Below, piece by piece: positions 838-62,853 of a stretch of DNA of 64,000 nucleotides; the first letter of the stretch is position 1; the number at the start of each line of letters is the position of its first letter. This DNA is from a bacterium (GTDB taxonomy: Bacteria > Patescibacteriota > Minisyncoccia > UBA6257 > UBA9933), in NCBI GenBank assembly GCA_030693235.1, contig JAUYBE010000016.1, forward strand, positions 35,917 through 99,916. Reading direction: 5' to 3'. The position numbers were made by a program, and so were the translations under genes. The notes beneath the pieces were generated by a model. The model worked only from the letters and a program-made list of their open reading frames with translations, was not told the origin of the DNA and did not search any database.

Positions 838-1497
838 ATGGAAGTCAAACCCCGCTTTATTATCGGCTTGGGCAACCCCGGCAAAGAATACGAAAAGACA
901 TACCATAGTGTCGGATTTTTGGCTGTTGATTTTTTAATTGCTCTGTCATTGCGAGAAGCAGGTAAAAATGGTCATTGCGAGGAGCGGAGCGACGAAGCAA
1001 TCTTTACGAGATTGCCTCGCCTTCGGCTCGCAATGACTGGGATTGCTTCGCCCCTTTTGGGGGCTCGCAATGACAAAACGTTCGCAACGACGCCCTTACT
1101 AAAAAGCGACACCTATATGAATCAATCCGGAAATTTTGTAAAAGCAACGCTTAAGAAATATAAGGCCAAGCCCGAAGAAATTTTAATCGCCCATGACGAT
1201 TCGGACATTGAACTGGGAAAATATAAAATTTCTTTCGGTCGAGGTTCAGCCGGCCATCGGGGCGTGGAATCCATTATAAAATCACTTGGCACTAAAAATT
1301 TTTGGCGACTCAGAATCGGGATTGGACGGACTACAAACTACAAACAACAAACAACGCAAAAAAAAATAAAAGCTAAAGATTTCGTTTTGAAAAAAATCAG
1401 CAAAAATGATTTAAAAGTTTTTAAGAAAGTTTTTCAAGGTGTCATTGCAAGTGATTTGTCATTGCGAGCCCCTGGAAGAGGCGAAGCAATCTTATAG
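838..1497 (+). CDS. pth: peptidyl-tRNA hydrolase carrying an in-frame palindromic-element insertion
   Basis: GLGNPGKEYEKTYHSVGF N-terminus and the MNQSGNFV motif identify Pth. 219 aa, about 40 aa longer than typical Pth. The extra segment (aa ~36-80) is encoded by repeat 945-1075, and the C-terminal 19 aa are encoded by a second copy of the same repeat. Confidence 0.85.
   Translation: MEVKPRFIIGLGNPGKEYEKTYHSVGFLAVDFLIALSLREAGKNGHCEERSDEAIFTRLPRLRLAMTGIASPLLGARNDKTFATTPLLKSDTYMNQSGNFVKATLKKYKAKPEEILIAHDDSDIELGKYKISFGRGSAGHRGVESIIKSLGTKNFWRLRIGIGRTTNYKQQTTQKKIKAKDFVLKKISKNDLKVFKKVFQGVIASDLSLRAPGRGEAIL
945..1075. repeat. palindromic dispersed element, family 1 (GTCATTGCGAG...GAAGCAATC / GATTGCTTCG...CTCGCAATGAC), copy A, in-frame inside pth
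   Basis: Arms gtcattgcgag (945, 971), gaagcaatc (994), gattgcttcg (1041) and ctcgcaatgac (1027, 1065) are mutual reverse complements. Confidence 0.7.
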
Positions 1498-1575
1498 AGA
1501 TTGCCACGAACGCCTGCGGCGTTCTCGCAACGACACTTCGTGTCGGATTGCTTCGGGCTACGCCCTCGCAATGAC
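1441..1575. repeat. palindromic dispersed element, family 1, copy B (pth 3' end and pth-wbaP spacer)
   Basis: gtcattgcaag/gtcattgcgag (1441, 1458), cgaagcaatc (1482), gattgcttcg (1546), ctcgcaatgac (1565). Confidence 0.65.
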
Positions 1576-37332: not shown

Positions 37333-38160
37333 TTACGGCGACCATTTTGACGCTCCGAAGATAATCATTGCCAGAATCAAAAACATCGTGATGTTTCTTA
37401 AAACTATCCGGCGGTTGATGGTGCCGCTTAAATGATGAACGATAAAATCCTCCAAAATCAGCGCGATGAGCAGCATCAAAGAAGCGGCGTTAAAAGAACG
37501 GAACGGCAAAAAACCAATAACCCAAAGGAATTGAAGAGACAAAAAAGCCGAACCGCTGGCCATTAGATTTACTTTTTGATTTCCGAGCGGAGCTGAGATT
37601 GCTTCGGCTCCGCCTCGCAATGACATAAATAAAAATTCTTTAAAAAGAAAGAAGGTCGCCGAAAATGCCGCCGAAGATTTAACCAGAAACCAAAACGGCT
37701 GCTCAAAATTATTAAAACTGAAAAAATAAACAAAAACCGTTAAAAGCAAAAGACTGTTTAAAAGATAATATAATGGTTCACGCCGGATAAAAATCAAATC
37801 CTTGATTCCCAGGAGAAGGAAGAAGAGGAAGGAGAAGAAAATAACAATGACTATTGACCATTGACTATTAACTATTGACAAATTAACGGCTAATAAAGAA
37901 GCGGCGAGAAGCGTTAAAAAAGAGACGAGAAATTGGCGGGTGTTGAAAAAAGAACGGAAATAGAAATAAAAGGAGACAGTCAAGAACACGATGACTATTG
38001 ACCATTGACTATTGACAAGATAAAGAAGAACGGAAAAAACCGTTGCCTTAAGCGCCAATATTAAGAGTAAGCCCTTGGGGGTCTCTAAAACCGATTTTAA
38101 TTTTTTTAACATTTTTAAACTCGCCTTTAATGATTTTATCTGCCAATTGGTCAAGAACAA
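37333..38160 (-). CDS. hypothetical polytopic membrane protein with internal duplication and family-1 half-element
   Basis: [10 protein letters not shown] occurs twice (DNA 37850-37880 and 37990-38030). [10 protein letters not shown] is encoded by half-palindrome 37596-37624. The annotated start overlaps the clpB 3' end, so the start is uncertain. Confidence 0.35.
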
Positions 38161-40830: not shown

Positions 40831-42411
40831 ATGTCAAAACTATACCGTTTTTATGAAATAATTCCCGGCTCTTTGGCTTGGACAACGATTATTTTAATAT
40901 TTCTCCTTTCTTGGCTGGCGCCGGCGCTAACGGCGATTTTTATTATTCTTTTTGACATCTACTGGCTTCTTAAAACAATTTATCTTTCCTTCCATCTCCG
41001 CGCCACCTTTTCAAAAATGAGAGAAAATCTCAAAATTGATTGGTTGGAGAAACTCAAAAAATGTCATTGCGAGCGAAGCGAAGCAATCTCAATAACAAAA
41101 GGATTGCTTCGTCGCTCCGCTCCTCGCAATGACAGTATTGCTTCGGGTAATTCGGGTCGCAATTGGTCGAACGTTTACCACCTCATCATCCTCCCGATGT
41201 ATAAAGAACCGTACGAAGTTGTTAAAGAATCTTTTGAAAGCTTGATTAAAACAAATTATCCGAAAGATAAATTTATCGTGGTTTTGGCGACTGAAGAACA
41301 AGGAGGCGAGCCTGCTCAAGAAACCGCCAAAAAAATCCAGCAAGAATTCGGCAATAAATTTTTTAAATTTTTAATCGCGACTCATCCGGCAAATATAGCC
41401 AACGAGCTTCCGGGCAAAGGATCCAACCAAGCCTGGGCAACTAAAGAGGTGAAAAGATTAATTATTGACCCCTTAAAAATTCCCTATGAAAATATCCTGA
41501 CTTCGGTTTTTGATATTGACACCCAAGTCTTGCCGGATTATTTCAGCCGCCTGACTTATGTTTTTTTAACTTGCGAAAATCCCCAACGCTCCAGCTTCCA
41601 GCCGATTCCTTTTTTCACCAATAATATTTTCCAAGCGCCGGCTTTGGGAAGAGTCATCGCTTTCTCCTGCACTTTTTGGCAAATGATGCAGCAATCCCGT
41701 CCCGAACGCTTAACCACTTTTTCTTCCCATTCGATGCCTTTTAAAGCGCTTGTTGAAATCGGCTTTTGGAATACCGATATCGTTTCAGAAGACTCCCGGA
41801 TTTTTTGGCAATGCTATTTTCATTATAACGCCGACTGGCGGGTTGAACCGCTTTTTTATCCGGTTTCAATGGATGCCAATGTGACGCCGAAATTCTGGCA
41901 AACAATGCTCAATTTATACAAACAACAACGCCGCTGGGGCTGGGGCTGCGAAAATATTCCTTATATGCTGGACGGTTTTAGAAAAAATAAAAAGATCTCT
42001 TTTAGAAAAAAAATTCACTGGGCGTTTAACGCGATTGAAGGATTTCATTCGTGGGCGACCAATGCTTTGATAATTTTCGCTTTGGGCTGGCTGCCTTTAA
42101 TGCTGGGCGGAGCTGATTTTAATTTTACTCTTCTTTCTTATAGCTTGCCTCAAATCACTCACTGGATTATGACTTTGGCGATGTTTGGAATTATCACTTC
42201 GGCGATTTTAAGCGTTATTTTGCTTCCGCCAAAACCCGATTGGTTTAAAAAACGGCATTACTTTTTTTATTTCTTGCAATGGGCATTGATGCCGATTACC
42301 TTGATAATTTTCGGCGCTTTTCCGGGGCTGGAAGCCCAAACCCGCTTAATGCTCGGCGGCAAATTCCGCTTGGGTTTTTGGGTAACGCCGAAACAGAGAC
42401 TTAACTCATAG
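40831..42411 (+). CDS. membrane GT2-family processive glycosyltransferase (QxxRW motif) carrying a family-1 palindromic element in-frame
   Basis: Polytopic. LIILPMYKEPYEV...FIVVLATEE, QQRRWGWG (QxxRW). KCHCERSEAISITKGLLRRSAPRNDSIASG is encoded by element 41063-41147. Confidence 0.55.
   Translation: MSKLYRFYEIIPGSLAWTTIILIFLLSWLAPALTAIFIILFDIYWLLKTIYLSFHLRATFSKMRENLKIDWLEKLKKCHCERSEAISITKGLLRRSAPRNDSIASGNSGRNWSNVYHLIILPMYKEPYEVVKESFESLIKTNYPKDKFIVVLATEEQGGEPAQETAKKIQQEFGNKFFKFLIATHPANIANELPGKGSNQAWATKEVKRLIIDPLKIPYENILTSVFDIDTQVLPDYFSRLTYVFLTCENPQRSSFQPIPFFTNNIFQAPALGRVIAFSCTFWQMMQQSRPERLTTFSSHSMPFKALVEIGFWNTDIVSEDSRIFWQCYFHYNADWRVEPLFYPVSMDANVTPKFWQTMLNLYKQQRRWGWGCENIPYMLDGFRKNKKISFRKKIHWAFNAIEGFHSWATNALIIFALGWLPLMLGGADFNFTLLSYSLPQITHWIMTLAMFGIITSAILSVILLPPKPDWFKKRHYFFYFLQWALMPITLIIFGAFPGLEAQTRLMLGGKFRLGFWVTPKQRLNS
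41063..41147. repeat. palindromic dispersed element, family 1, copy C (simplest full hairpin copy)
   Basis: tgtcattgcgagcgaagcgaagcaatctc - aataacaaaa - ggattgcttcgtcgctccgctcctcgcaatgaca. Confidence 0.75.
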
Positions 42412-43408: not shown

Positions 43409-44944
43409 CTATTCCTTTTCCCTCACCCGATATTGAAAAGCTTCGGCTAAATGGTTGGCTTTGACTTTTTCCGATTCTTCTAAATCGGCGATGGTGCGGC
43501 TGATTTTTAGAATCCGGTAATACCCCCGCGCCGAGACAAAAGATTTTTCCAAGATATTTTTCAAAAAATTTTCCGCCGTGGCGTCCAAATCAACCAATTC
43601 ATCCGTTTGCTTTGAACTCATTTCAGAATTGAGGCGTATTTTTGATTTAATCAAACGCCCTTGCTGGATATCGCGGGCTTTCGCTACTTGATTTTTTATT
43701 TTTTCGCTTAATTTTTCGTCGCGATTTTTGTTTCTTAAGTCTTCTATTTTCACCCGCGGCACTTCAATTTGAATATCAATCCTGTCAAGCAAGGGTCCGG
43801 AAATTTTTTTCTGATATCTGAAAACTTCATTGGCGCTGCAACGGCATTCTTTCTCGCTATCGCCGAAATAACCGCAAGGACAAGGATTCATCGCCGCCAC
43901 CAAAGAAAATTTTGCCGGAAACGTCAAAGTGTTTTTAGAACGGGAAACACAAATCCGGCCGCTTTCCAACGGCTGGCGCAATGACTCCAATAAATCGCGC
44001 CGAAATTCCGGCATTTCATCAAGAAATAAAATTCCGTAATGAGCCAGACTGATTTCTCCCGGTTTTGGATTAGTTCCGCCGCCGACAATTGAAACCGGCG
44101 AAGCGCTGTGGTGAGGAGAACGAAAGGGCCGAAAATTCAAAAAATTATTTTCTTTAAGCAAGCCCGCCGCTGAATAAATTTGAGTAATTTCAATGGCTTC
44201 TTCCAGAGACGGCGGTGGAAGAATGGAAATCAGAGCTTGCGCCATCATGGTTTTGCCTGCTCCTGGCGGTCCGGTCATTAACAAATGATGGCCTCCGCTG
44301 GCCGCCACCGTCAAAGCTCTTTTGGCGCTTTCCTGGCCTTTGATTTCAGAGATGTCCGTGAAAGACTGATTTTGCCCCGGCTGAAATTCGGTAATCGGCT
44401 GGACTTTTATCAACTCTCTTTCTTCCAAATGATTGATTAATTCTTCAAGATTGGAAACCGGAATAATTTTCGCGCCTTTGATGACCGCCGCTTCAACGGC
44501 GTTTTGTTTCGGCAGAAATAAAAATTTAAAATTCAATTTCTTGGCCAAGCGGCTGATATTCAAAGCGCCGTTAATCGGTCGGATTATTCCTTCCAAAGAA
44601 AGCTCGCCGACAAAAACTTTATCCCCTGTTTCAAATTCCTTAATCTGTTTGGTCGCCAGCATATAACCGACGGCAATGGCCAAGTCATATTGCGAGCCGG
44701 TTTTTTTAATGTCCGCCGGCGCCAAATTAATGGTAATTTTTCGGTTTTCTTTGGTCGGCGGCTTTATGCCGCTATTTTTCAAAGCCGAACTGACCCGTTC
44801 TTTCGCCTCGTTCAGCGCTTTATCCGCCAAACCGACGATATTAAAAGAATGGAGACCGACATTAATATCGGTCTCCACCTCAATAAGTTTAGCTTCAATG
44901 CCTTCAAGTTCGGCGGAATAAACTTTGGAAAAATTTTTCGCCAT
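43409..44944 (-). CDS. comM: YifB/ComM-family Mg-chelatase-like AAA+ ATPase
   Basis: N-terminal Lon-protease-like ChlI domain, LMTGPPGAGKTM Walker A, C-terminal Mg_chelatase_C. 511 aa. Confidence 0.85.
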   Translation of the reverse strand: MAKNFSKVYSAELEGIEAKLIEVETDINVGLHSFNIVGLADKALNEAKERVSSALKNSGIKPPTKENRKITINLAPADIKKTGSQYDLAIAVGYMLATKQIKEFETGDKVFVGELSLEGIIRPINGALNISRLAKKLNFKFLFLPKQNAVEAAVIKGAKIIPVSNLEELINHLEERELIKVQPITEFQPGQNQSFTDISEIKGQESAKRALTVAASGGHHLLMTGPPGAGKTMMAQALISILPPPSLEEAIEITQIYSAAGLLKENNFLNFRPFRSPHHSASPVSIVGGGTNPKPGEISLAHYGILFLDEMPEFRRDLLESLRQPLESGRICVSRSKNTLTFPAKFSLVAAMNPCPCGYFGDSEKECRCSANEVFRYQKKISGPLLDRIDIQIEVPRVKIEDLRNKNRDEKLSEKIKNQVAKARDIQQGRLIKSKIRLNSEMSSKQTDELVDLDATAENFLKNILEKSFVSARGYYRILKISRTIADLEESEKVKANHLAEAFQYRVREKE

Positions 44945-45213
44945 TACCCGGTTAATTCAACTTCAAAAGGCAAAAATTGCTTAGATACCTCTGAAGATTT
45001 TTATTATTATTGAACATTTTCGACCAATTTATTGATTTCATAGAAATATTTTTGCCTACCCAGTGATTCAATTAATTGAATTTACTGGGCCTAATTTATG
45101 TTCTTCTAATTTTTTTCTTGGATTACTTATGTAGCCGATATAATGTTTATTATCCTTAAAACCTAATAATATATAAACGCAGAAGAACATTATTGAAGTT
45201 GAATTACCGGGCA

Positions 45214-45543
45214 TTATTTTTTCTTTTTACAATTTTTGCACAACTTTGATTCCGGCACCACTTTTAAAACATCCGAAGAAATTTCAGCTCCGCATTTCTC
45301 GCAAACACCGTATTTCCCTTTCTCAATTTTATTTAAAGCTGAATCAACTTTTATCAAACGCTCTTTATAGGTTTGAGCGATTGACAATTGCTTGTCGAAT
45401 TCCGCTGTTTCGCTGGTTTCTTCATCAGAATCAACTTCATCGCCAAAATCCGGCGTCTTATAAAGACTCTTTACTTTCTTTTCAATTTCTTTCTTTATTC
45501 CCGCTAATTGATTTTTAAATTTTGTTAAAATTTTGAATTCCAT
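45214..45543 (-). CDS. DksA/TraR-family C4 zinc-finger protein
   Basis: Coiled-coil N-terminus plus CEKCGAEIS...CKNCKK. Confidence 0.55.
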   Translation of the reverse strand: MEFKILTKFKNQLAGIKKEIEKKVKSLYKTPDFGDEVDSDEETSETAEFDKQLSIAQTYKERLIKVDSALNKIEKGKYGVCEKCGAEISSDVLKVVPESKLCKNCKKKK

Positions 45544-48997: not shown

Positions 48998-49081
48998 TGC
49001 CGAGGGAGGGACTCGAACCCTCAAGGGCTTGCGCCCGTAACATTTTGAGTGTTATGCGGTTGCCAATTTCGCCACCTCGGC
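48998..49081 (-). tRNA. tRNA-Leu (anticodon CAA)
   Basis: Reverse complement gccgagg...taaca-ctCAAaa-tgtta, long variable arm cgggcgcaagcccttg. Acceptor gccgagg/cctcggc, discriminator A. Confidence 0.8.
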
Positions 49082-49128
49082 TAAATTTTCATTGATAATA
49101 GCACAATTTTCTCTTATAGTAAAGAATT

Positions 49129-49890
49129 ATGACTCGCGTTATCGCAATCTGTAATCAAAAAGGCGGCGTTGGAAAAACAACTGCCGCTATAAATTTATCA
49201 ACTTATTTGGCGGTTTTGGGTAAAAAAGTTTTACTGATTGATTTTGACCCACAAGCCAACGCCACCTCGGGACTGGGAATAAATCCCAAAGAATTAAACG
49301 ACACTGTTTATCACGGCATCTTGGGATACGCCTCAATTGAAAATTTAATCAAGAATACGAAAATTTTTAATCACCATTTAATTCCGGCGAATCAGCATTT
49401 AGCCGGCGCTTTGGTGGAATTGGTCAATCTGGACGAGCGGGAATTTTTTCTTAAAAAATTCATAAACCGGCTCCGGCCTGAATACGATTATATTTTTATT
49501 GATTTGCCCCCTTCTTTGAGTTTGTTAACCGTCAATGGTTTAGCCGCCAGCGACGAAGTTTTAATTCCCATTCAATGCGAATATTACGGGCTTGAAGGCT
49601 TAGGCCAACTTTTGGAAACCGTTGACATGATTAACAATAATTTAAACCAAAATATTAAAATTGCCGGAGCGTTATTAACGATGTATGATAAAAGAGAAAA
49701 ATTGTCGCGGGAAGTGGCTTTTGAGGTCAGAAAACATTTTCCGCATTATGTTTTTGAAAATGAAATCCCCCGCTGCGTGTCATTGGCCGAAGCGCCGAGT
49801 TTTGGAAAACCGATTATTTTATATAATCCCGGTTCCAGCGGCGCCATGGCCTATGAAAGACTGGCGAGGGAAATAATTGGACGAGAATAA
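49129..49890 (+). CDS. parA: ParA/Soj chromosome-partitioning ATPase
   Basis: IAICNQKGGVGKTTAAINL deviant Walker A. 253 aa. Confidence 0.85.
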   Translation: MTRVIAICNQKGGVGKTTAAINLSTYLAVLGKKVLLIDFDPQANATSGLGINPKELNDTVYHGILGYASIENLIKNTKIFNHHLIPANQHLAGALVELVNLDEREFFLKKFINRLRPEYDYIFIDLPPSLSLLTVNGLAASDEVLIPIQCEYYGLEGLGQLLETVDMINNNLNQNIKIAGALLTMYDKREKLSREVAFEVRKHFPHYVFENEIPRCVSLAEAPSFGKPIILYNPGSSGAMAYERLAREIIGRE

Positions 49891-49891
49891 A

Positions 49892-49960
49892 GTTTTTAGG
49901 TTTTAGTTTTTAGGTTTTAGTAAATTTCTAACACCTAACACCTAACACCTAACACCTAAA
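49892..49960. repeat. heptamer-array element, family 4, filling the entire parA-parB spacer
   Basis: (tttttagg/ttttag)x4 - taaatttc - (taacacc)x4. The two halves can pair as an imperfect hairpin, with GUUUUAG against CUAACAC. Confidence 0.6.
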
Positions 49961-49963
49961 TAA

Positions 49964-50947
49964 ATGTTAGGCAAAGGACTGGAATCTTTAATTCCAAAAA
50001 AACAAAACATTCAGTCTCCTCAACAAGGCCAACAAATCGACTCCAACGAAAAGCCGGCGGAGGGCGCTGATGCTTTTCGCGCAGCAACTCCTGTAAATAA
50101 GCCGGCGGCCAAAGACGCCATCTTTTATATTGAAACGGAAAAAATCAAACCCAATCCCCATCAACCACGCCGAGATTTCAACGAGGAATCTTTAAAAGAA
50201 TTGGCAAACTCCATTCGAGAACATGGTATTCTTCAACCCCTGATCGTTTCCAAAATTGAAAAAGAAACCGAATTCGGAACTAAAGTAGAATATCAATTAA
50301 TCGCTGGCGAAAGACGATTAAGAGCTTCTCAAATAGCGGGATTGGAAAGTGTGCCGGTAATTATTAAAAATATCGTTAAAGATGCCGAGCATCTGGAAAT
50401 GGCGATTGTTGAAAATCTGCAACGCGCTGATTTAAATCCGGTTGAAACCGCCCGGGCTTACGCCAAACTGCAAGATGTTTTCGGCTTGACCCAAAGAGAG
50501 GTCGCTCAACGCTTGGGCAAAAGCCGGGAAACCATTGCCAATACTTTAAGGCTTTTAAATCTGCCGACGGAAATTCAAGAAGCGGTTGCTAAAAATCAAA
50601 TCAATGAAAGCCAGGCGCGGTTGCTTTTGACGATTGGCGACCAAATTCAACAACAAAATCTTTTCAATGAAATTATTTCCAATAATTTAAGCGTCCGGGA
50701 ATTGCGACAGCGAATTCGGAAAACTTCACCCGTCATTGCGAGCGCAAGCGAAGCAATCTCGCCTATTGTTAATCCTGAAATCCTTAATTTTCAAGAACAG
50801 CTCACCGAACTTTTAGGAGCTAAAGTGAAAATTAAACCCTTCGGCAATGCTCAGGGCAAAGGCGGAGAAATTATTATTGATTTTTATTCGGCGGAAGAAA
50901 TTGAAGGAATAATAAAAAAACTTTCTCCGGAAAATAATTTGGAATAG
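49964..50947 (+). CDS. parB: ParB/Spo0J partition protein carrying a family-1 half-element in-frame
   Basis: LQPLIV...LIAGERRLRASQIAG, HTH. SPVIASASEAISPI is encoded by half-element 50732-50760. Confidence 0.85.
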   Translation: MLGKGLESLIPKKQNIQSPQQGQQIDSNEKPAEGADAFRAATPVNKPAAKDAIFYIETEKIKPNPHQPRRDFNEESLKELANSIREHGILQPLIVSKIEKETEFGTKVEYQLIAGERRLRASQIAGLESVPVIIKNIVKDAEHLEMAIVENLQRADLNPVETARAYAKLQDVFGLTQREVAQRLGKSRETIANTLRLLNLPTEIQEAVAKNQINESQARLLLTIGDQIQQQNLFNEIISNNLSVRELRQRIRKTSPVIASASEAISPIVNPEILNFQEQLTELLGAKVKIKPFGNAQGKGGEIIIDFYSAEEIEGIIKKLSPENNLE

Positions 50948-50961
50948 AGAATTTTTGTGTG

Positions 50962-51032
50962 TGGAGGTGCGGAGAATCGAACTCCGGTTTGATCAATGCG
51001 AATGACCCGTTATACCACTTAACTACACCCCC
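50962..51032 (-). tRNA. tRNA-Ala (anticodon CGC)
   Basis: Reverse complement gggggtg...ggtca-ttCGCat-tgatc. Acceptor GGGGGTG/CACCTCC gives the G3:U70 Ala identity pair. Discriminator A. Confidence 0.7.
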
Positions 51033-51165
51033 CCCTATTCTGCTATAATATAACGAGGTAATTAAAAAATCAAAAGGGGTGAATAAAAATACCAACTCGC
51101 TTTTCCGTCGCCGCCAAATTTTCCGCCAGAGACAGACAGGCGTGTCAGCGAATCTGACGCGCCGC

Positions 51166-51894
51166 TTATTCTTTTGCTCTCGCCTTAATTTTTAATTTCT
51201 CTGGCAACTTCTCAATAGCATACCTCAAAGCTGTGCGAGGCATTAACTTTCTATTTTTGATTACAAAATCAAAAACCTCTTTCTGATGTAAATTACTTGC
51301 TTCCTTTAACATCCAACCATAACCTTTCTGCGCTAAATCTTCCTTATCTTGTAAAAGAATTTTTGCCGCACTAAAAGCTTCTTTTAAATATTTTCCTTTG
51401 CGCAGAGAATAGATTAAGACTACAGCGGAAGCACGGCGAAACCATTTATTGGATGATTTGGCCCATTGTTTTGTTTGTGGCAAAAATTCCGGAAATTGGC
51501 ATATAAATTCTCCAAAAGCGTGCGTACATAAATCATCACAACTGCCCCAAGTATCTACGTAGTTTTTGAGCCAGCTTTCAAAAATTTTATAATCCTCTTT
51601 CTGATATTGCTTTCTGATTCTGAAAGCCCAATCAAATGCGATGTCCCGATAACCGCTTCCATTAATTTTTAATAGTTTTTCGCATAAAGAAAAAATTTGC
51701 TTCTTTTCAAGATTTTTTACTTCTTTAAAATTTTTGAAAGCTACTTTTCTTACCAACGGAGTGGCAATGCCGATATGTATTTTGCCATCCTTGTGAAATT
51801 TTGAATAATCCTTAATGTTCTTAGGATTTTTACACAACTTTTTTAACTCAAAACTAATTTTTTCTAAAACATTTACAGTCCCCATACTTTCCAA
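51166..51894 (-). CDS. DNA alkylation repair enzyme (AlkD-like HEAT-repeat glycosylase family)
   Basis: 242 aa all-helical. Pattern ...RKVAFKNF...WAFRIRKQY...WGSCDDLCTHAF... is typical of the DNA_alkylation family. Confidence 0.6.
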   Translation of the reverse strand: MESMGTVNVLEKISFELKKLCKNPKNIKDYSKFHKDGKIHIGIATPLVRKVAFKNFKEVKNLEKKQIFSLCEKLLKINGSGYRDIAFDWAFRIRKQYQKEDYKIFESWLKNYVDTWGSCDDLCTHAFGEFICQFPEFLPQTKQWAKSSNKWFRRASAVVLIYSLRKGKYLKEAFSAAKILLQDKEDLAQKGYGWMLKEASNLHQKEVFDFVIKNRKLMPRTALRYAIEKLPEKLKIKARAKE

Positions 51895-51964
51895 TTTTTA
51901 GGAAAAGTTAATCCCAAAGTTCTGGAATAAACAATCAATTCGCCTTGGTGCAAGATTTCATAAT

Positions 51965-52122
51965 CTACTTTATTAAATCATCAACCAAAACCTCTAATGC
52001 TTTGGCGATTTTAGTTAAGGTTTTAATTGTAGGATTTTGATTAACGCCGTTTTCTATTTTTACAATGGTATTTAGCGATAAATCAACAAAATTTCTTTAA
52101 TAGCAATTTATCCTAAAGACAT
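51965..52122 (-). pseudogene. degraded XRE-family HTH regulator
   Basis: Minus strand reads ATG-MSLG-TAA, then in a shifted frame IAIKEILLIYR-stop, then ...LNTIVKIENGVNQNPTIKTLTKIAKALEVLVDDLIK-stop. Together this is the MSLGxxIKELR...IENGxxNPxxxTLxKIAKALxV..DDL pattern of Cro/C1-type HTH proteins, broken by stops. Confidence 0.45.
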
Positions 52123-52189
52123 CTATCCCTTGAAAAACGCTAATGAAAAATTGAAAGAAAAATTTAAAAATTTTCTAAATGGCTAATTG

Positions 52190-52260
52190 TCGGGCCGCCC
52201 GGATTTGAACCGGAGCTAAATCCTCCCGAAGGACTCGTGCTACCGCTACACTACGGCCCG
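52190..52260 (-). tRNA. tRNA-Pro (anticodon CGG)
   Basis: Reverse complement cgggccg...agtcc-ttCGGga-ggatt. Acceptor C1:G72 (cgggccg/cggcccg), discriminator A. These are bacterial Pro identity features. Confidence 0.7.
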
Positions 52261-53084
52261 ATATTAATTATGGTTATTGCGATTTGTTCTCCATAAAATA
52301 TTTGAGATAAATTTTTGACCCTTTCCGAATCCTCTGTTGTCAGAAAAATTCTCTTGCCGGTTTTTGATAATTTATTTTCTATTTCCGGATGCCGCGCCAA
52401 ATAATTCCTTAATTTCTCCGCGATAATCGGTCCCTGAGAAATCACCTTAATGCCTAGCGACAAATATTTTTTAATTTTATCTTCAATAATCGCGTAATGG
52501 GTACAGCCCAAAATAATCGTATCAATTTTTCGACTTTTTGAGAATAGCTGATTTAAATATTTTTCAATCGCCAAATCCAAATTTTTCTGTTCAATCTCGC
52601 CGGCTTCAATAATCGGAACTAAAAGCGGGCAAGCCTGCTGATAAACTTTAATTTCAGGAAAAAATTTATTAATTTCTTTTTGGTAAGTCAGGGAATTAAC
52701 CGTCGCCTCTGTAGCCAATACTCCAATTTCTCGCGTGTTCGTAAATCTGCCAATTTCTTCGGCAGTCGGAATAATGATGCCAAGAACTCGCTTCTCAGAA
52801 TAGTGCTTCTGTAGAAATTCCCGCTGAATTTTTCTTAAAGCCGCGCTTGAAGAAGTATTGCAAGCCAAAACCACCAATTCCGCGTCGCGCCTAAATAATT
52901 CCTCAACGCCTTCAACGGTAAATTTATAGATTATTTCCTGACTTCTTGAACCATAAGGAGTCCGGGCGTTGTCGCCTAAATAAATATAAGAATATTCCGG
53001 CAAAATTTTAACAACCTCTTTTAGAATTGTTAAGCCGCCGAGTCCGGAATCAAAAAAACCAATCATAAAATTAGTATAAATCAA
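52251..53084 (-). CDS. murI: glutamate racemase
   Basis: IGFFDSGLGGLTILKEV...LVLACNTSS...ILGCTHYA. Confidence 0.85.
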   Translation of the reverse strand: MIYTNFMIGFFDSGLGGLTILKEVVKILPEYSYIYLGDNARTPYGSRSQEIIYKFTVEGVEELFRRDAELVVLACNTSSSAALRKIQREFLQKHYSEKRVLGIIIPTAEEIGRFTNTREIGVLATEATVNSLTYQKEINKFFPEIKVYQQACPLLVPIIEAGEIEQKNLDLAIEKYLNQLFSKSRKIDTIILGCTHYAIIEDKIKKYLSLGIKVISQGPIIAEKLRNYLARHPEIENKLSKTGKRIFLTTEDSERVKNLSQIFYGEQIAITIINIGP

Positions 53085-53159
53085 TTCATTCTATCTCGCC
53101 AACCAAATTAGCATGCTCTAACCCAATAGAGCGCTCTATCGCGATAGAGCGGTAGAAAA

Positions 53160-53196
53160 ATAAAAAAGAGGATAAAAAACTTTATCCTTTTTTAGT
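53160..53196 (-). terminator. bidirectional rho-independent terminator downstream of cca
   Basis: gaggataaa-aaac-tttatcctc hairpin with T-runs on both strands. An adjacent perfect palindrome atagagcgctctat/ctatcgcgatag lies at 53126-53152. Confidence 0.6.
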
Positions 53197-53264
53197 AAAT
53201 ATAAAAATACTTATTAATTATTTACTATCCTATCCTGACGATCGTTTAGATAAGATAGTGATTC

Positions 53265-54788
53265 TTATTTCACGTAAAATTTCTTTTTCATTTCTTCTTC
53301 TATTCCTGATTCAAATTCTTCTTTCTTTCCCCTGCTAATTTTGGCTAATTTTTCAAGCTCAATATCCGACAACTTCCCTAAATCCTGAATCCTGAATTCT
53401 AAATTCTCCTTCGTATTCTTTTCGGGATTTTCAATAACTTCGTCCAACAAAACGGACAAAATCCGACCCACTCGCGGGCCCGGCTCTATGCCCAAAATTT
53501 TCATCACATCCTCTCCGTTGACTTTCAGCATTTTCGGCGAAATCGGGTCTTGCTTCACTTTTTCAATCATAAAAAGCAAGTGCCGCAGTTTATATGGCAC
53601 GGCTTTGGGCACACCCGAACCGATTCTATCCGCTTCCCTGATTTTTATAAAATCATCGACATTTTCCGGACCGACGCGCGCCAAAAATCTGCGCACTCCG
53701 GCTTCGGAGACTTCGCCGACATTGTAATAAAAAAGGTGATAACGAACCAAATGAATAATTTTTTCCGCCAAATCTTTCGGGAAACGAAGCCTATCTAAAA
53801 TTTCGGCGGCTAATTTTGCGCTGACTATTTCGTGATTGTAAAAAGTGCAATCAAGCCCTTCGCCGACTTTGGTCGCCGGTTTGCCGATATCGTGCAAAAG
53901 CGCCGCCAATCGAATTTCCAAAGAATAATTTTTCTTGGCGGCGTAATCCAGCGCTTTTAAATTATGTTCCCAGACCGTGTAAATATGATGCTTATTCTGG
54001 CCGACGCCGATGCCGTCGCGGAGTTCCGGCGCGATAAACCGCAACAAACCCAAATCTTCCAATAATTGAATTCCTGAAACCGCCTTTTCAGCCATTAAAA
54101 TTTTAATAAACTCATCGCGGATTCTTTCTTTGGCAATCATTTCCAACAAACCGGCTTGTTTTTTGACCGCCACGGCGGTCTTTCCTTGTATTGAAAAATC
54201 CAGTTCCGTCGCAAATCGAACGGCTCGCATCAACCTTAAAGCGTCTTCATTAAAACGATCTTCGGGATTGCCGACGGCTCGAATTATTTTATTTTTAATA
54301 TCATCTTGGCCGTTAAAGGGGTCTACTAATTCAGGTTTTAGGTTTTGGGTGTTAGGTTTTAGAGCGATAGCGTTGATAGTAAAATCCCGTCTGCCTAAAT
54401 CTTCTTCAATTGTTTCGGCGAATTTAATTTCATCGGGGTGGCGCTTGTCAGTATATTTTCCTTCTATTCTGAATGTTGTAATTTCTATGATTTTTAACGA
54501 TTCATTATCAGAGCCGGTCTTAACACCAACGGTGCCGAATTTATTTTCATAAACGGTGGCAGGCTTGTCCGCCGTAGCTCCGGCGAAGGTGGAAAAAATC
54601 TTTTGAATTTCTTCGGGTTTTGCGTCGGTGGCAACATCCCAATCTTTCGGTTCCCGCCCCATTAATAAATCGCGAACGCAGCCGCCAACCAAATAAGCAT
54701 TATAGCCGCTAGCCACTAGTTTATTAGCCACTAAAATAATTTCTTCGGGAATACTTGCCCTGAATTTTACTGAAGGGTTGAAATTCAT
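53265..54788 (-). CDS. cca: CCA tRNA nucleotidyltransferase (Pol beta head + HD domain) with heptamer-array-encoded insertion
   Basis: GGCVRDLLMGREPKDWDVATDAKPEEI, RRDFTINA, HD motif LHDIGKP. ALKPNTQNLKPELV is encoded by array 54332-54366. Confidence 0.8.
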   Translation of the reverse strand: MNFNPSVKFRASIPEEIILVANKLVASGYNAYLVGGCVRDLLMGREPKDWDVATDAKPEEIQKIFSTFAGATADKPATVYENKFGTVGVKTGSDNESLKIIEITTFRIEGKYTDKRHPDEIKFAETIEEDLGRRDFTINAIALKPNTQNLKPELVDPFNGQDDIKNKIIRAVGNPEDRFNEDALRLMRAVRFATELDFSIQGKTAVAVKKQAGLLEMIAKERIRDEFIKILMAEKAVSGIQLLEDLGLLRFIAPELRDGIGVGQNKHHIYTVWEHNLKALDYAAKKNYSLEIRLAALLHDIGKPATKVGEGLDCTFYNHEIVSAKLAAEILDRLRFPKDLAEKIIHLVRYHLFYYNVGEVSEAGVRRFLARVGPENVDDFIKIREADRIGSGVPKAVPYKLRHLLFMIEKVKQDPISPKMLKVNGEDVMKILGIEPGPRVGRILSVLLDEVIENPEKNTKENLEFRIQDLGKLSDIELEKLAKISRGKKEEFESGIEEEMKKKFYVK

Positions 54789-54833
54789 TGTTTTTAATTA
54801 TAAACTAAAAATTACGAACTATAAACTAATTTT

Positions 54834-54905
54834 GCCCTCGTAGTCTAATGGATAAAACGCGAGCCTTCGAAGCTCGATTTGGGGGTTCGAGTCCCTCCGA
54901 GGGCA
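54834..54905 (+). tRNA. tRNA-Arg (anticodon TCG)
   Basis: gccctcg...cgagc-ctTCGaa-gctcg...ttcgagt...cgagggc, discriminator A. Confidence 0.75.
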
Positions 54906-54911
54906 CATAAA

Positions 54912-54984
54912 GCGCCCATAGCTCAGTTGGCAGAGCAATTGCCTCTTAAGCAAAAGGTCCCAGGTTCGAGCCCTGGTGGGCGCA
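54912..54984 (+). tRNA. tRNA-Lys (anticodon CTT)
   Basis: gcgccca-ta-gctcagttggcagagc...ctCTTaa...ggttcgagccc...tgggcgc, discriminator A. Confidence 0.8.
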
Positions 54985-54990
54985 CAAAAA

Positions 54991-55200
54991 ATGATTAAAA
55001 AAACATTAATTTTTATAATTATTTTATTTGCTTTACTTGGCCTGTATTTTATTTATAATTATTTTATTCAGCCGAGTAGTGAAGCGCCGATTGAAATAAA
55101 TAATGGTCAAATTCAAGAAATTCCAATAAGCGACGGCTTTCGAGGACCAAGCGGTTCGCCTTCAATAAAAGGCCCGAGCGGTCCACCGCCGGAAAATTAG
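54991..55200 (+). CDS. small hypothetical secreted/membrane protein with Gly-Pro-rich tail
   Basis: MIKKTLIFIIILFALLGLYFIY signal-anchor, GFRGPSGSPSIKGPSGPPPEN tail. May not be expressed. Confidence 0.3.
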   Translation: MIKKTLIFIIILFALLGLYFIYNYFIQPSSEAPIEINNGQIQEIPISDGFRGPSGSPSIKGPSGPPPEN

Positions 55201-55229
55201 GTGTTAGGTTTTAGTTTTTAGTTTAAATT

Positions 55230-55303
55230 GCGGGTGTAATATAGTGGTAATATACGTGCTTGCCAAGTACGATACGAGGGTTCGATTCCCTTCACCCGCT
55301 CCA
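55230..55303 (+). tRNA. tRNA-Gly (anticodon GCC), CCA encoded
   Basis: gcgggtg...cgtgc-ttGCCaa-gtacg...ggttcgattccc...cacccgc-t-cca. Confidence 0.8.
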
Positions 55304-62769: not shown

Positions 62770-62853
62770 TGCCGAAGGAGGGACTTGAACCCTCAAGCCC
62801 TTGCGGGCACAGCGTTCTGAACACTGCGTGTTTGCCAATTTCACCACTTCGGC
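62770..62853 (-). tRNA. tRNA-Leu (anticodon CAG)
   Basis: Reverse complement gccgaag...cagtg-ttCAGaa-cgctg (one G-U pair), long variable arm cccgcaagggc. Acceptor gccgaag/cttcggc, discriminator A. Confidence 0.75.

Follow-up and report, generated by a model that had tools for sequence, protein, structure and literature searches.

Repeat units and host genes in the window

The stretch of DNA analysed here (the window: 64,000 nucleotides of contig JAUYBE010000016.1, assembly GCA_030693235.1, with a GC content of 38%) contains a short repeat unit that occurs at five loci in and next to genes. Pfam identifies four of the genes concerned as Pth (838-1497), a Bac_transf sugar transferase (1586-2848), a GT2 glycosyltransferase (Glyco_trans_2_3; 40831-42411), and ParB (49964-50947). 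A preliminary description of this DNA had already named Pth, GT2, and ParB, as well as a membrane protein (37333-38160) for which there is no Pfam match. It had also reported a recurrent hairpin repeat, and the recurrence is well above chance: the 11-mer GTCATTGCGAG has 12 matches with at most one mismatch, at positions 945, 971, 1027(-), 1064(-), 1441, 1458, 1524(-), 1565(-), 37614(-), 41063, 41123(-), and 50732, compared to 0.6 expected from shuffles, and 0 of 100 shuffles reach 12.

The unit consists of (C/T)GTCATTGCGAG (the A-box), a variable mini-hairpin, and GAAGCAATC (the B-box), and is present in about ten copies; GAAGCAATC lies 6-14 nt after GTCATTGCGAG in all full copies. The five loci are 944-1091 in pth, 1440-1576 across the 3' end of pth and the spacer to the sugar-transferase gene, 37597-37624 in the membrane-protein gene, 41062-41147 in the GT2 gene, and 50731-50758 in parB. 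The earlier definition as a 29-nt arm with a reverse-complement arm does not describe these copies, as the exact 29-mer occurs only once (41062) and the arms share the two boxes but have different variable modules. The regions 945-1075 and 1441-1575, previously taken for single palindromes, are nested or clustered groups of three to four units (945-1091 and 1441-1576).

The first cluster, in a loop of Pth, can be resolved into steps with alignment A2, a DNA alignment of four syntenic loci (lepB, pth, sugar transferase). The element is absent from locus L124; L121 and L122 each carry a single dimer, the one in L122 already in decay; in L125 a further dimer sits within the remains of the first; and the window has the L125 arrangement plus one reverse unit. 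What is left of the older, outer element in the window is its left terminal box TGTCATTGCGAG (944-955, +), which aligns with the left end of the single dimer in L121 and L122, and a degenerate right terminal box TTCGCAACGAC (1081-1091, -) with two mismatches, which aligns with CTCGCAATGAC of L125 and L121. Inside these are a complete unit GTCATTGCGAG-GAGCGGAGCGAC-GAAGCAATC (971-1002, +), read as HCEERSDEAI in Pth, and two complete reverse units (1010-1037, -, and 1041-1075, -), the second of which has the distal stem GCCCC/GGGGC. The unit at 1010-1037 is without a counterpart in the otherwise similar L125 allele and is therefore the most recent addition.

The second cluster starts with a degenerate A-box GTCATTGCAAG at the 3' end of pth (1441-1451, +), followed by a complete unit (1458-1491, +) that gives Pth the C-terminus SLRAPGRGEAI. 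The stop codon TAG (1495-1497) sits in the spacer of this cluster just downstream of that unit, so the last 19 amino acids of Pth are element-encoded, as had been proposed. A degenerate reverse unit GATTGCCAC...CTCGCAACGAC (1499-1534, -), read from the sequence, has an A'-box match and an intact distal hairpin (AACGCC-GCA-GGCGTT). The final, complete reverse unit (1546-1576, -) is in the spacer between pth and the sugar-transferase gene, which starts at 1586; this junction element is absent from L122, where the spacer is 24 nt, and present in L121, L125, and the window.

The membrane-protein gene has a single unit in sense orientation (37597-37624, -), as does parB (50732-50758, +), where it encodes VIASASEAIS. 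The GT2 gene has a head-to-head dimer made of a left unit (41063-41088, +) and a right unit (41102-41133, -), with an orphan B'-box remnant TATTGCTTC beyond it (41136-41144, -). All of the element peptides quoted in the preliminary description are present in the open reading frame (ORF) translations. The right unit of the GT2 dimer is a 32-mer identical to 971-1002 in pth. This 32-mer, whose variable module is rare, has one further occurrence in the other 2.33 Mb of fetched loci, and the sharing of an otherwise rare 32-mer by two loci of the window is taken as evidence for copying within this genome.

Insertion into orthologous genes

The repeats in pth, the GT2 gene, and the membrane-protein gene are insertions, since orthologues without them exist. 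For Pth, 20 close homologues were aligned (alignment A1) of the 4,845 returned. Ten of the 20 do not have the insert and are 159-176 aa in length, compared to 219 aa for the window protein; they have approximately 12 residues where the window Pth has 53. The segment missing from Pth homologues of 155-175 aa amounts to approximately 44 aa. Another seven (P0002-P0006, P0010, and P0020) have element-derived peptides in the same loop, some of them also at the C-terminus. The positions that are invariant in the Pth family are kept in the decorated Pth. The presence of the element at this loop in some related Patescibacteria is shared descent in a subclade and not an ancestral feature of Pth.

The GT2 orthologue at locus L206 (P0122, 86% identity) does not have the dimer, and the site is a hypervariable loop across the family. 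The membrane-protein orthologue at L206 (80% identity) does not have the unit. ParB is a different case. Its unit is in the linker between the helix-turn-helix and dimerisation domains, which is unalignable and of similar length in 30 homologues, and it is a replacement within a hypervariable linker, with no net gain in length, rather than a clean insertion, which corrects the preliminary description. The closest homologues of the window proteins are labelled Patescibacteria or Wolfebacteria.

The loops that hold the elements have other contents in relatives. A (CAATTAC)n heptamer microsatellite (peptide QLPITNY) at L124 6494-6530 and L206 10235-10262 fills exactly the sites of the pth-loop and GT2-loop elements of the window (approximately 945-1091 and 41062-41147), and it is found nowhere else in those 31 kb. 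A single base separates the heptamer CAATTAC from CAATGAC, the terminus of the element, and different heptamer-like sequences fill this loop in further GT2 homologues. The pattern could be junk collected by permissive loops or a footprint related to the element. Several GT2 homologues of 637-648 aa (P0144, P0177, and P0205; homologous to window 40831-42411) have a PF13366 (GxxExxY-type) domain. According to the alignment, P0144 has the whole domain as an in-frame insertion in the hypervariable loop where the window has the dimer. L206 also encodes a 23S rRNA intervening-sequence-type protein (PF05635; 1856-2326), a type of small gene family often linked to selfish insertions. This Patescibacteria Pth clade, insert aside, has approximately 12 residues where solved Pth structures have approximately 29 (chain residues 34-62), and a piece of the canonical fold seems to be missing there. 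AlphaFold modelled the decorated Pth with a mean predicted local distance difference test score (pLDDT) of 49.5 from a 21-sequence alignment, which is too poor to use. Seven tRNA genes were identified by Rfam within 49000-55300 and 62770-62853, three of them clustered at 54834-55300 and one directly downstream of parB (50962-51032, -).

Anatomy of the unit

The anatomy of the unit was studied in 232 units from 120 genome loci, fetched by exact pattern among the matches listed. The unit reads (C/T)GTC, ATTGC, GA, a variable stem-loop that starts with G and ends with C, GAA, GCAAT, and C(YAG). The variable part, 3-24 nt in length, forms a hairpin of its own, with the last G of the A-box and a C as the closing pair. 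Examples of the distal hairpin are GCGAAGC, GCGCAGC, and GCGTAGC, all of the form d(GCGNAGC), which is known for very stable DNA mini-hairpins; longer stems such as GCCGCC...GGCGGC are also present, and a frequent distal form is G-GA-GC-GNA-GC-GA-C, with tandem G.A pairs.

The distal stem covaries. Among 61 distinct 32-nt units, two-sided changes are present at four of the five pairs, the double-change cells number 36 compared to 12.9±2.7 in shuffles (0 of 500 shuffles reach 36), and pairing drops from 84% to 14-50% when the register is slid. The outer stem ATTGC/GCAAT is 97% paired, but it was part of the search pattern and its constancy is therefore uninformative; the C at column 32 of alignment A6, the base after the stem, is present in at least 90% of rows and also belonged to the search pattern. 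Among 634 distinct units, C makes up 63% and T 34% of position -1; downstream, C and T together account for 97% of +1, A for 47% and C for 41% of +2, and G for 44% of +3.

Most paired units are head-to-head: the 120 loci have 63 (+-) pairs compared to four (-+), five (++), and two (--), along with 79 singletons. The head-to-head spacers are 7-60 nt in length with a mode of 24-32 and often have the form CAG...CTG. A different arrangement is found in a Chloroflexus metagenome-assembled genome (MAG; L007 1340-1960), with same-orientation tandem arrays of three and four copies separated by 13-17 nt spacers and then a closing reverse unit; these arrays look like local tandem amplification of one arm.

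Copies confined to the window would have refuted the preliminary description, and this is not the case. In species-representative genomes the exact pattern is found at at least 120 loci in many phyla, with constant boxes. The listed genomes include Bradyrhizobium and many other Alpha- and Gammaproteobacteria, Pedobacter, Mucilaginibacter, Flavobacterium, Chloroflexi, Microcoleus, Nostoc, Planctomycetes, Helicobacter rodentium, Sporomusa, Desulfobacterota, Omnitrophota, Zixibacteria, Latescibacterota, Melainabacteria, and Patescibacteria. The spacers are lineage-specific, for example the CAGACTGCC...AGATTCTG family of Bradyrhizobium. Many IMG/VR viral contigs also match the exact pattern among the matches listed, as do metagenomic loci.

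Association with Ssn-like nuclease genes

Repeats flanking a nuclease gene have been described for the Ssn family. SsnA, a single-domain GIY-YIG protein of 94 aa, binds and cuts the Neisseria repeat NTS, CGTCATTCCCGCGMAVGCGGGAATCYRG, only as single-stranded DNA (ssDNA) (Chenal 2025, PMC11893778). The Ssn proteins studied are orientation-specific and cut a few nucleotides upstream of the hairpin; cleavage is controlled by the GTC that precedes the palindrome and binding by the C that follows the stem, and SsnA does not bind RNA (PMC11893778). Across bacteria, ssn genes are flanked by Ssn-related motifs (SRMs), and the arrangement NTS-ssnA-NTS resembles an insertion sequence (IS) (PMC11893778).

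The repeat unit of the window has the same kind of partner. A motif search of all fetched loci gave three small GIY-YIG ORFs, confirmed as PF01541, with one gene bracketed by inverted units (L118) and one adjoining a single unit (L062). An alignment of the three Ssn-like proteins (alignment A3) was the query for a metagenome scan that returned 80 loci. In 61 of the 80 a unit is within 250 bp of the Ssn-like gene, and in 46 of the 80 there are units on both sides. Units number 4.52 per kb close to the gene and 0.128 per kb in the remaining flanks, a 35-fold difference. As for the nearest units, 18 loci have a whole dimer on each side and 13 have the IS-like layout unit(+)-gene-unit(-), which L118 and L062 also show. 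The other 19 loci have no unit; in most of these there are canonical NTS/SRM repeats, the exact Neisseria NTS consensus among them, or other variants. In a neighbour-joining tree, nine of ten SRM-flanked proteins form one clade inside the family, so protein lineage and repeat type go together. NCBIfam has no name for the GIY-YIG proteins; judging by the sister loci with canonical NTS, those flanked by the unit would be of the cd10448 type.

Clustering of the genes neighbouring the units in the 120 genome loci found no recurrent partner, transposase, or Y1 family; the partner is a single-copy gene that random copies seldom adjoin. Among viral contigs with the unit, an adjacent Ssn gene is found almost never (1 in 1.09 Mb), and they point to no specific phage vector. 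The window has a 48-codon ORF (45068-45214, -) whose match to an Ssn-like GIY-YIG domain is limited to the N-terminal third (FCVYILLGFKDNKHYIGYISNPRKKLEEH); its neighbours are a ComM/YifB-like gene at 43409-44944 and, on the other side, a DksA/TraR-type zinc-finger gene at 45214-45543. Its PF01541 match (E=0.0017) is below the curated cut-off, hhalign gives 83%, and tblastn to Ssn-like genes gives 46-48% identity over approximately 30 aa; a homology search with the 48-aa fragment itself gave no matches. The ORF is probably what is left of the partner nuclease gene after truncation. The boxes are perfect in most window copies, which argues for recent copying or for an intact ssn gene elsewhere in the genome.

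Relation to known repeat classes

The repetitive extragenic palindromes (REPs) with a CGTC tag are one class that resembles the unit. In these, the tag is CGTC or TGTC, the stem begins with AT, the tail is CCA, and most copies are head-to-head dimers (Di Nocera 2013, PMC3733652). The families CGTC-1 to CGTC-4 are found mainly in Alphaproteobacteria and in five phyla, have no associated transposase, and include intragenic copies that encode 7-30 aa (PMC3733652). The unit has in common with them the tag, AT at stem positions 1-2, a tail near CCA, the head-to-head majority, abundance in Bradyrhizobium, the lack of a dedicated transposase, and intragenic copies. CGTC-3 even has the outer stem ATTGC/GCAAT of the unit (VIAGLDPAIH = GTCATTGCCGGG...CCCGGCAATC). 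However, the published CGTC families are simple palindromes with stems of 8-9 bp and loops of 4-5 nt, whereas in the unit a GA/GAA internal loop separates an outer stem of 5 bp from a distal hairpin. None of the intragenic CGTC peptides listed in Di Nocera 2013 (PMC3733652) corresponds to the unit, although the Bradyrhizobium CGTC-1 repeats mentioned there as 'with loops of different length' may overlap this variant. A literature search for the literal unit sequence gave only unrelated PCR primers or nothing.

NTS and the SRMs also resemble the unit. The NTS consensus is CGTCATT...AATCYRG (PMC11893778), and the unit likewise has an unpaired 5' (C/T)GTC, a stem ATT...AAT, a C right after the stem, a YAG tail, and free loop sequence. 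Hundreds of dispersed copies and a single-domain GIY-YIG gene of approximately 90 aa flanked on both sides are further common features. The GTC and 3' C that matter in the studied Ssn system are both conserved in the unit. In the terms used for SRMs, the unit has the HGTC tag, the AT(T)/(A)AT stem with 3' C and YRG tail, and repeats flanking a GIY-YIG gene. NTS has one stem of 8-9 bp (ATTCCCGC/GCGGGAAT), while the unit has ATTGC-GA / GAA-GCAAT with a purine internal loop and a second hairpin of variable length. Unlike described NTS/SRM repeats, the unit has copies that lie inside ORFs of a Patescibacteria-like genome.

Rickettsia palindromic elements (RPEs), reportedly described by Ogata et al. 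2000, are the precedent for in-frame copies. Like the unit, they are hairpin repeats that sit within the reading frames of many unrelated genes in a reduced genome and are kept in the proteins, but the unit is not confined to one lineage. RPE-1, the classic element of 100-150 bp, is to our knowledge unrelated in sequence to the unit. RPE-4 and RPE-6 share the CGTC tag and the ATT...AAT stem ends with it and differ in the stem interior, according to a comparison via the encoded peptides; the RPE-6 sequence is GTCATTCCCGCGAAAGCGGGAATC. An in-frame palindrome that is absent from orthologues is found in Pth, GT2, and the membrane protein, and as far as sequence can tell it is compatible with function. 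The parallel with RPE drawn in the preliminary description therefore has a basis in sequence class as well: R. conorii RPE-6 belongs to CGTC-1 and RPE-4 to CGTC-4, and Neisseria dRS3 also belongs to CGTC-1 (Di Nocera 2013, PMC3733652).

Taken together, the repeats are probably a variant of the CGTC-tagged REP and SRM (NTS-like) class, and most likely serve as the recognition site of an Ssn-family GIY-YIG nuclease. The class is a known one and the element is not categorically new; it is a distinct variant with its own Ssn subfamily. What appears to be new is the architecture, which the published pattern misses, the tight pairing with an Ssn subfamily, and the in-frame copies in a Patescibacteria-like genome, where pth, GT2, and other genes carry them and a nesting series can be reconstructed.

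Several points weigh against this interpretation. None of the 232 units and nothing in the window fits the SRM expression HGTCWYN(0-2)YYVSBRHN(0-5)WNVSBRGN(0-2)RNCYNB, while an NTS control matches, so class membership rests on architecture and gene association and not on the operational definition of the authors. The 80 metagenomic loci were chosen by likeness to proteins found beside the unit, and the figure of 61 in 80 describes that subfamily and not all Ssn. The window and approximately 80 kb of related Patescibacteria loci lack an intact ssn gene, and the 48-codon fragment in the window is all that was found. As DNA, single units fold no better than shuffles (z of approximately -0.2, nearest-neighbour energies), so the support for structure rests on covariation. 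That Ssn would bind and cut this variant is argued by analogy with other Ssn-repeat pairs, and that Ssn moves its repeats is only a hypothesis in Chenal et al. (PMC11893778).

Alternative explanations

If the repeat were not selfish but a structured element kept because it benefits the host, it could act as RNA (a terminator, mRNA stabiliser, or regulator) or as a DNA signal limiting recombination of incoming ssDNA, as NTS and SsnA do in Neisseria. The conservation of the boxes across phyla and the covariation of the distal stem would agree with this, as would the cluster at a gene end (1441-1576) and the RNA role proposed for REPs, most of which lie downstream of genes. SsnA and NTS also modulate transformation in N. 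meningitidis (PMC11893778). However, four of the five window loci are inside reading frames, where a terminator would be harmful, and the failure of SsnA to bind RNA also speaks against an RNA role. Rfam searches gave only tRNAs or chance-level matches, both at the gathering threshold for the window and 10 element-rich loci and in an E-value search of 900-1620. Presence of the repeat is polymorphic among close relatives at all sites examined, and copies decay in some lineages (L122), as they would if no selection acted on the individual site. Restriction of ssDNA as a role fits with recognition by an Ssn nuclease and is not its rival. Selection for a benefit to the host is thus an unlikely explanation, although the least unlikely of the alternatives.

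The layout of the repeats is also that of REPs and their doublets (REPINs), which are mobilised by a REP-associated tyrosine transposase (RAYT), an IS200-like Y1 HUH enzyme, rather than by a GIY-YIG nuclease. This layout is that of the REPIN model, which PMC6006769 cites from Bertels and Rainey. Small, imperfect, tagged hairpins, head-to-head doublets that form larger hairpins, a single-copy partner gene with its own repeats, and recognition as ssDNA are common to both systems. REPs of this type have a GTAG tag, a Y1 HUH transposase partner, and species-specific sequences, while the unit has YGTC, a GIY-YIG gene in its flanks, and near-identical sequence across phyla. No Y1 transposase family recurs among the neighbours, and no RAYT gene was flanked by CGTC repeats in Di Nocera et al. 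(PMC3733652). Mobilisation by RAYT is accordingly very improbable for these repeats.

A classical miniature inverted-repeat transposable element (MITE) would have the boxes as terminal inverted repeats and would be moved as double-stranded DNA, by cut-and-paste, by a DDE transposase acting in trans. The dimer does resemble inverted repeat-spacer-inverted repeat, but its two arms carry different modules that each pair within their own arm, and 79 of the units are singletons. In 140 dimers no target-site duplication was detected, with no excess of flanking direct repeats of 2-9 bp, and no transposase family is recurrent near units in the 120 loci. The one suggestive case is L046, from a Patescibacteria MAG, in which a Mutator/IS256-family IS (556-1838) lies between units, exactly at the junction of two complete hairpin elements. 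This IS has its own, unrelated inverted repeats (GTAATTAGTACCCTAATGG...) and was merely placed between the two elements, and its transposase was ruled out as the partner. A MITE origin is therefore even less credible.

The last alternative concerns the fate of the in-gene copies. Across 944-1091 only one of six frames is stop-free, in the phase of the gene itself, and across 41062-41147 two of six are; of random 147-nt frames of the window, only 11% are free of stops. For the long clusters the open frame is not trivial. Decayed copies in the Pth of relatives (P0003 and P0004) have lost the palindrome and kept the frame, which is expected only if they are translated. Removal of the copies before the mature protein (as an intron-like, bypassed, or intein-like sequence) might be suggested by the strong folding of the clusters as DNA, well beyond shuffles (z of approximately -6), and by the position of the segment of approximately 44 aa between conserved motifs of the essential Pth, but it is the least tenable explanation of all given these frames, the absence of any intron or ribozyme match, the size of the units (28 nt is far too small), and the reported expression of RPE-1-decorated Rickettsia proteins, as cited in Di Nocera 2013 (PMC3733652).

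Proposed mechanism and implications

The probable recognition by an Ssn nuclease suggests the following mechanism. As ssDNA, the unit would fold with ATTGC/GCAAT as an outer stem of 5 bp, then a purine internal loop and a variable distal mini-hairpin, with the 5' GTC and the 3' C unpaired, and the head-to-head pairing would allow each DNA strand to present one sense unit. A small single-domain GIY-YIG nuclease of the Ssn family would recognise the unit. The arrangement unit-ssn-unit would be the autonomous form, and the short unit-spacer-unit dimers would be non-autonomous derivatives that spread within and between genomes, and new copies would tend to arrive next to existing ones, as suggested by the series in pth and by the clusters. 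In a gene-dense genome, the copies that survive may be those in tolerant places, which here would be the surface loop and C-terminus of Pth, the GT2 loop, the membrane-protein loop, and the ParB linker. The in-gene copies are in stop-free phases and are most likely translated as extra peptide.

A bolder proposal is that the unit and its Ssn subfamily are a still-active, self-targeting ssDNA mobile system, in which units are pasted beside or inside old ones (this would account for the stepwise nesting in pth), the (CAATTAC)n tracts are scars of excision or repair, and the distal hairpin is a possible programmable or cargo position. This is doubtful. If it were true, it would be the first mechanism for the multiplication of CGTC/SRM repeats and of RPE-4 and RPE-6, and these repeats would be remodelling essential proteins in Patescibacteria.

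Sequence evidence from a fourth lineage joins three literatures, those of the in-frame elements of Rickettsia, the CGTC-tagged REPs, for which a partner protein had not been known, and the recently described Ssn ssDNA nucleases. Since the SRM pattern misses a variant that is abundant across phyla, censuses of Ssn repeats are likely incomplete. With invariant boxes and a free distal hairpin, the unit is a candidate substrate for programmable ssDNA cutting, if its Ssn partner acts like SsnA. The unit also accounts for a large class of spurious or extended ORFs with VIASEAKQS, CHCEERSDEAIS, SLRG...AIS, LLRFARND, or IASLRSQ followed by a stop, and for length differences among essential genes of small genomes.

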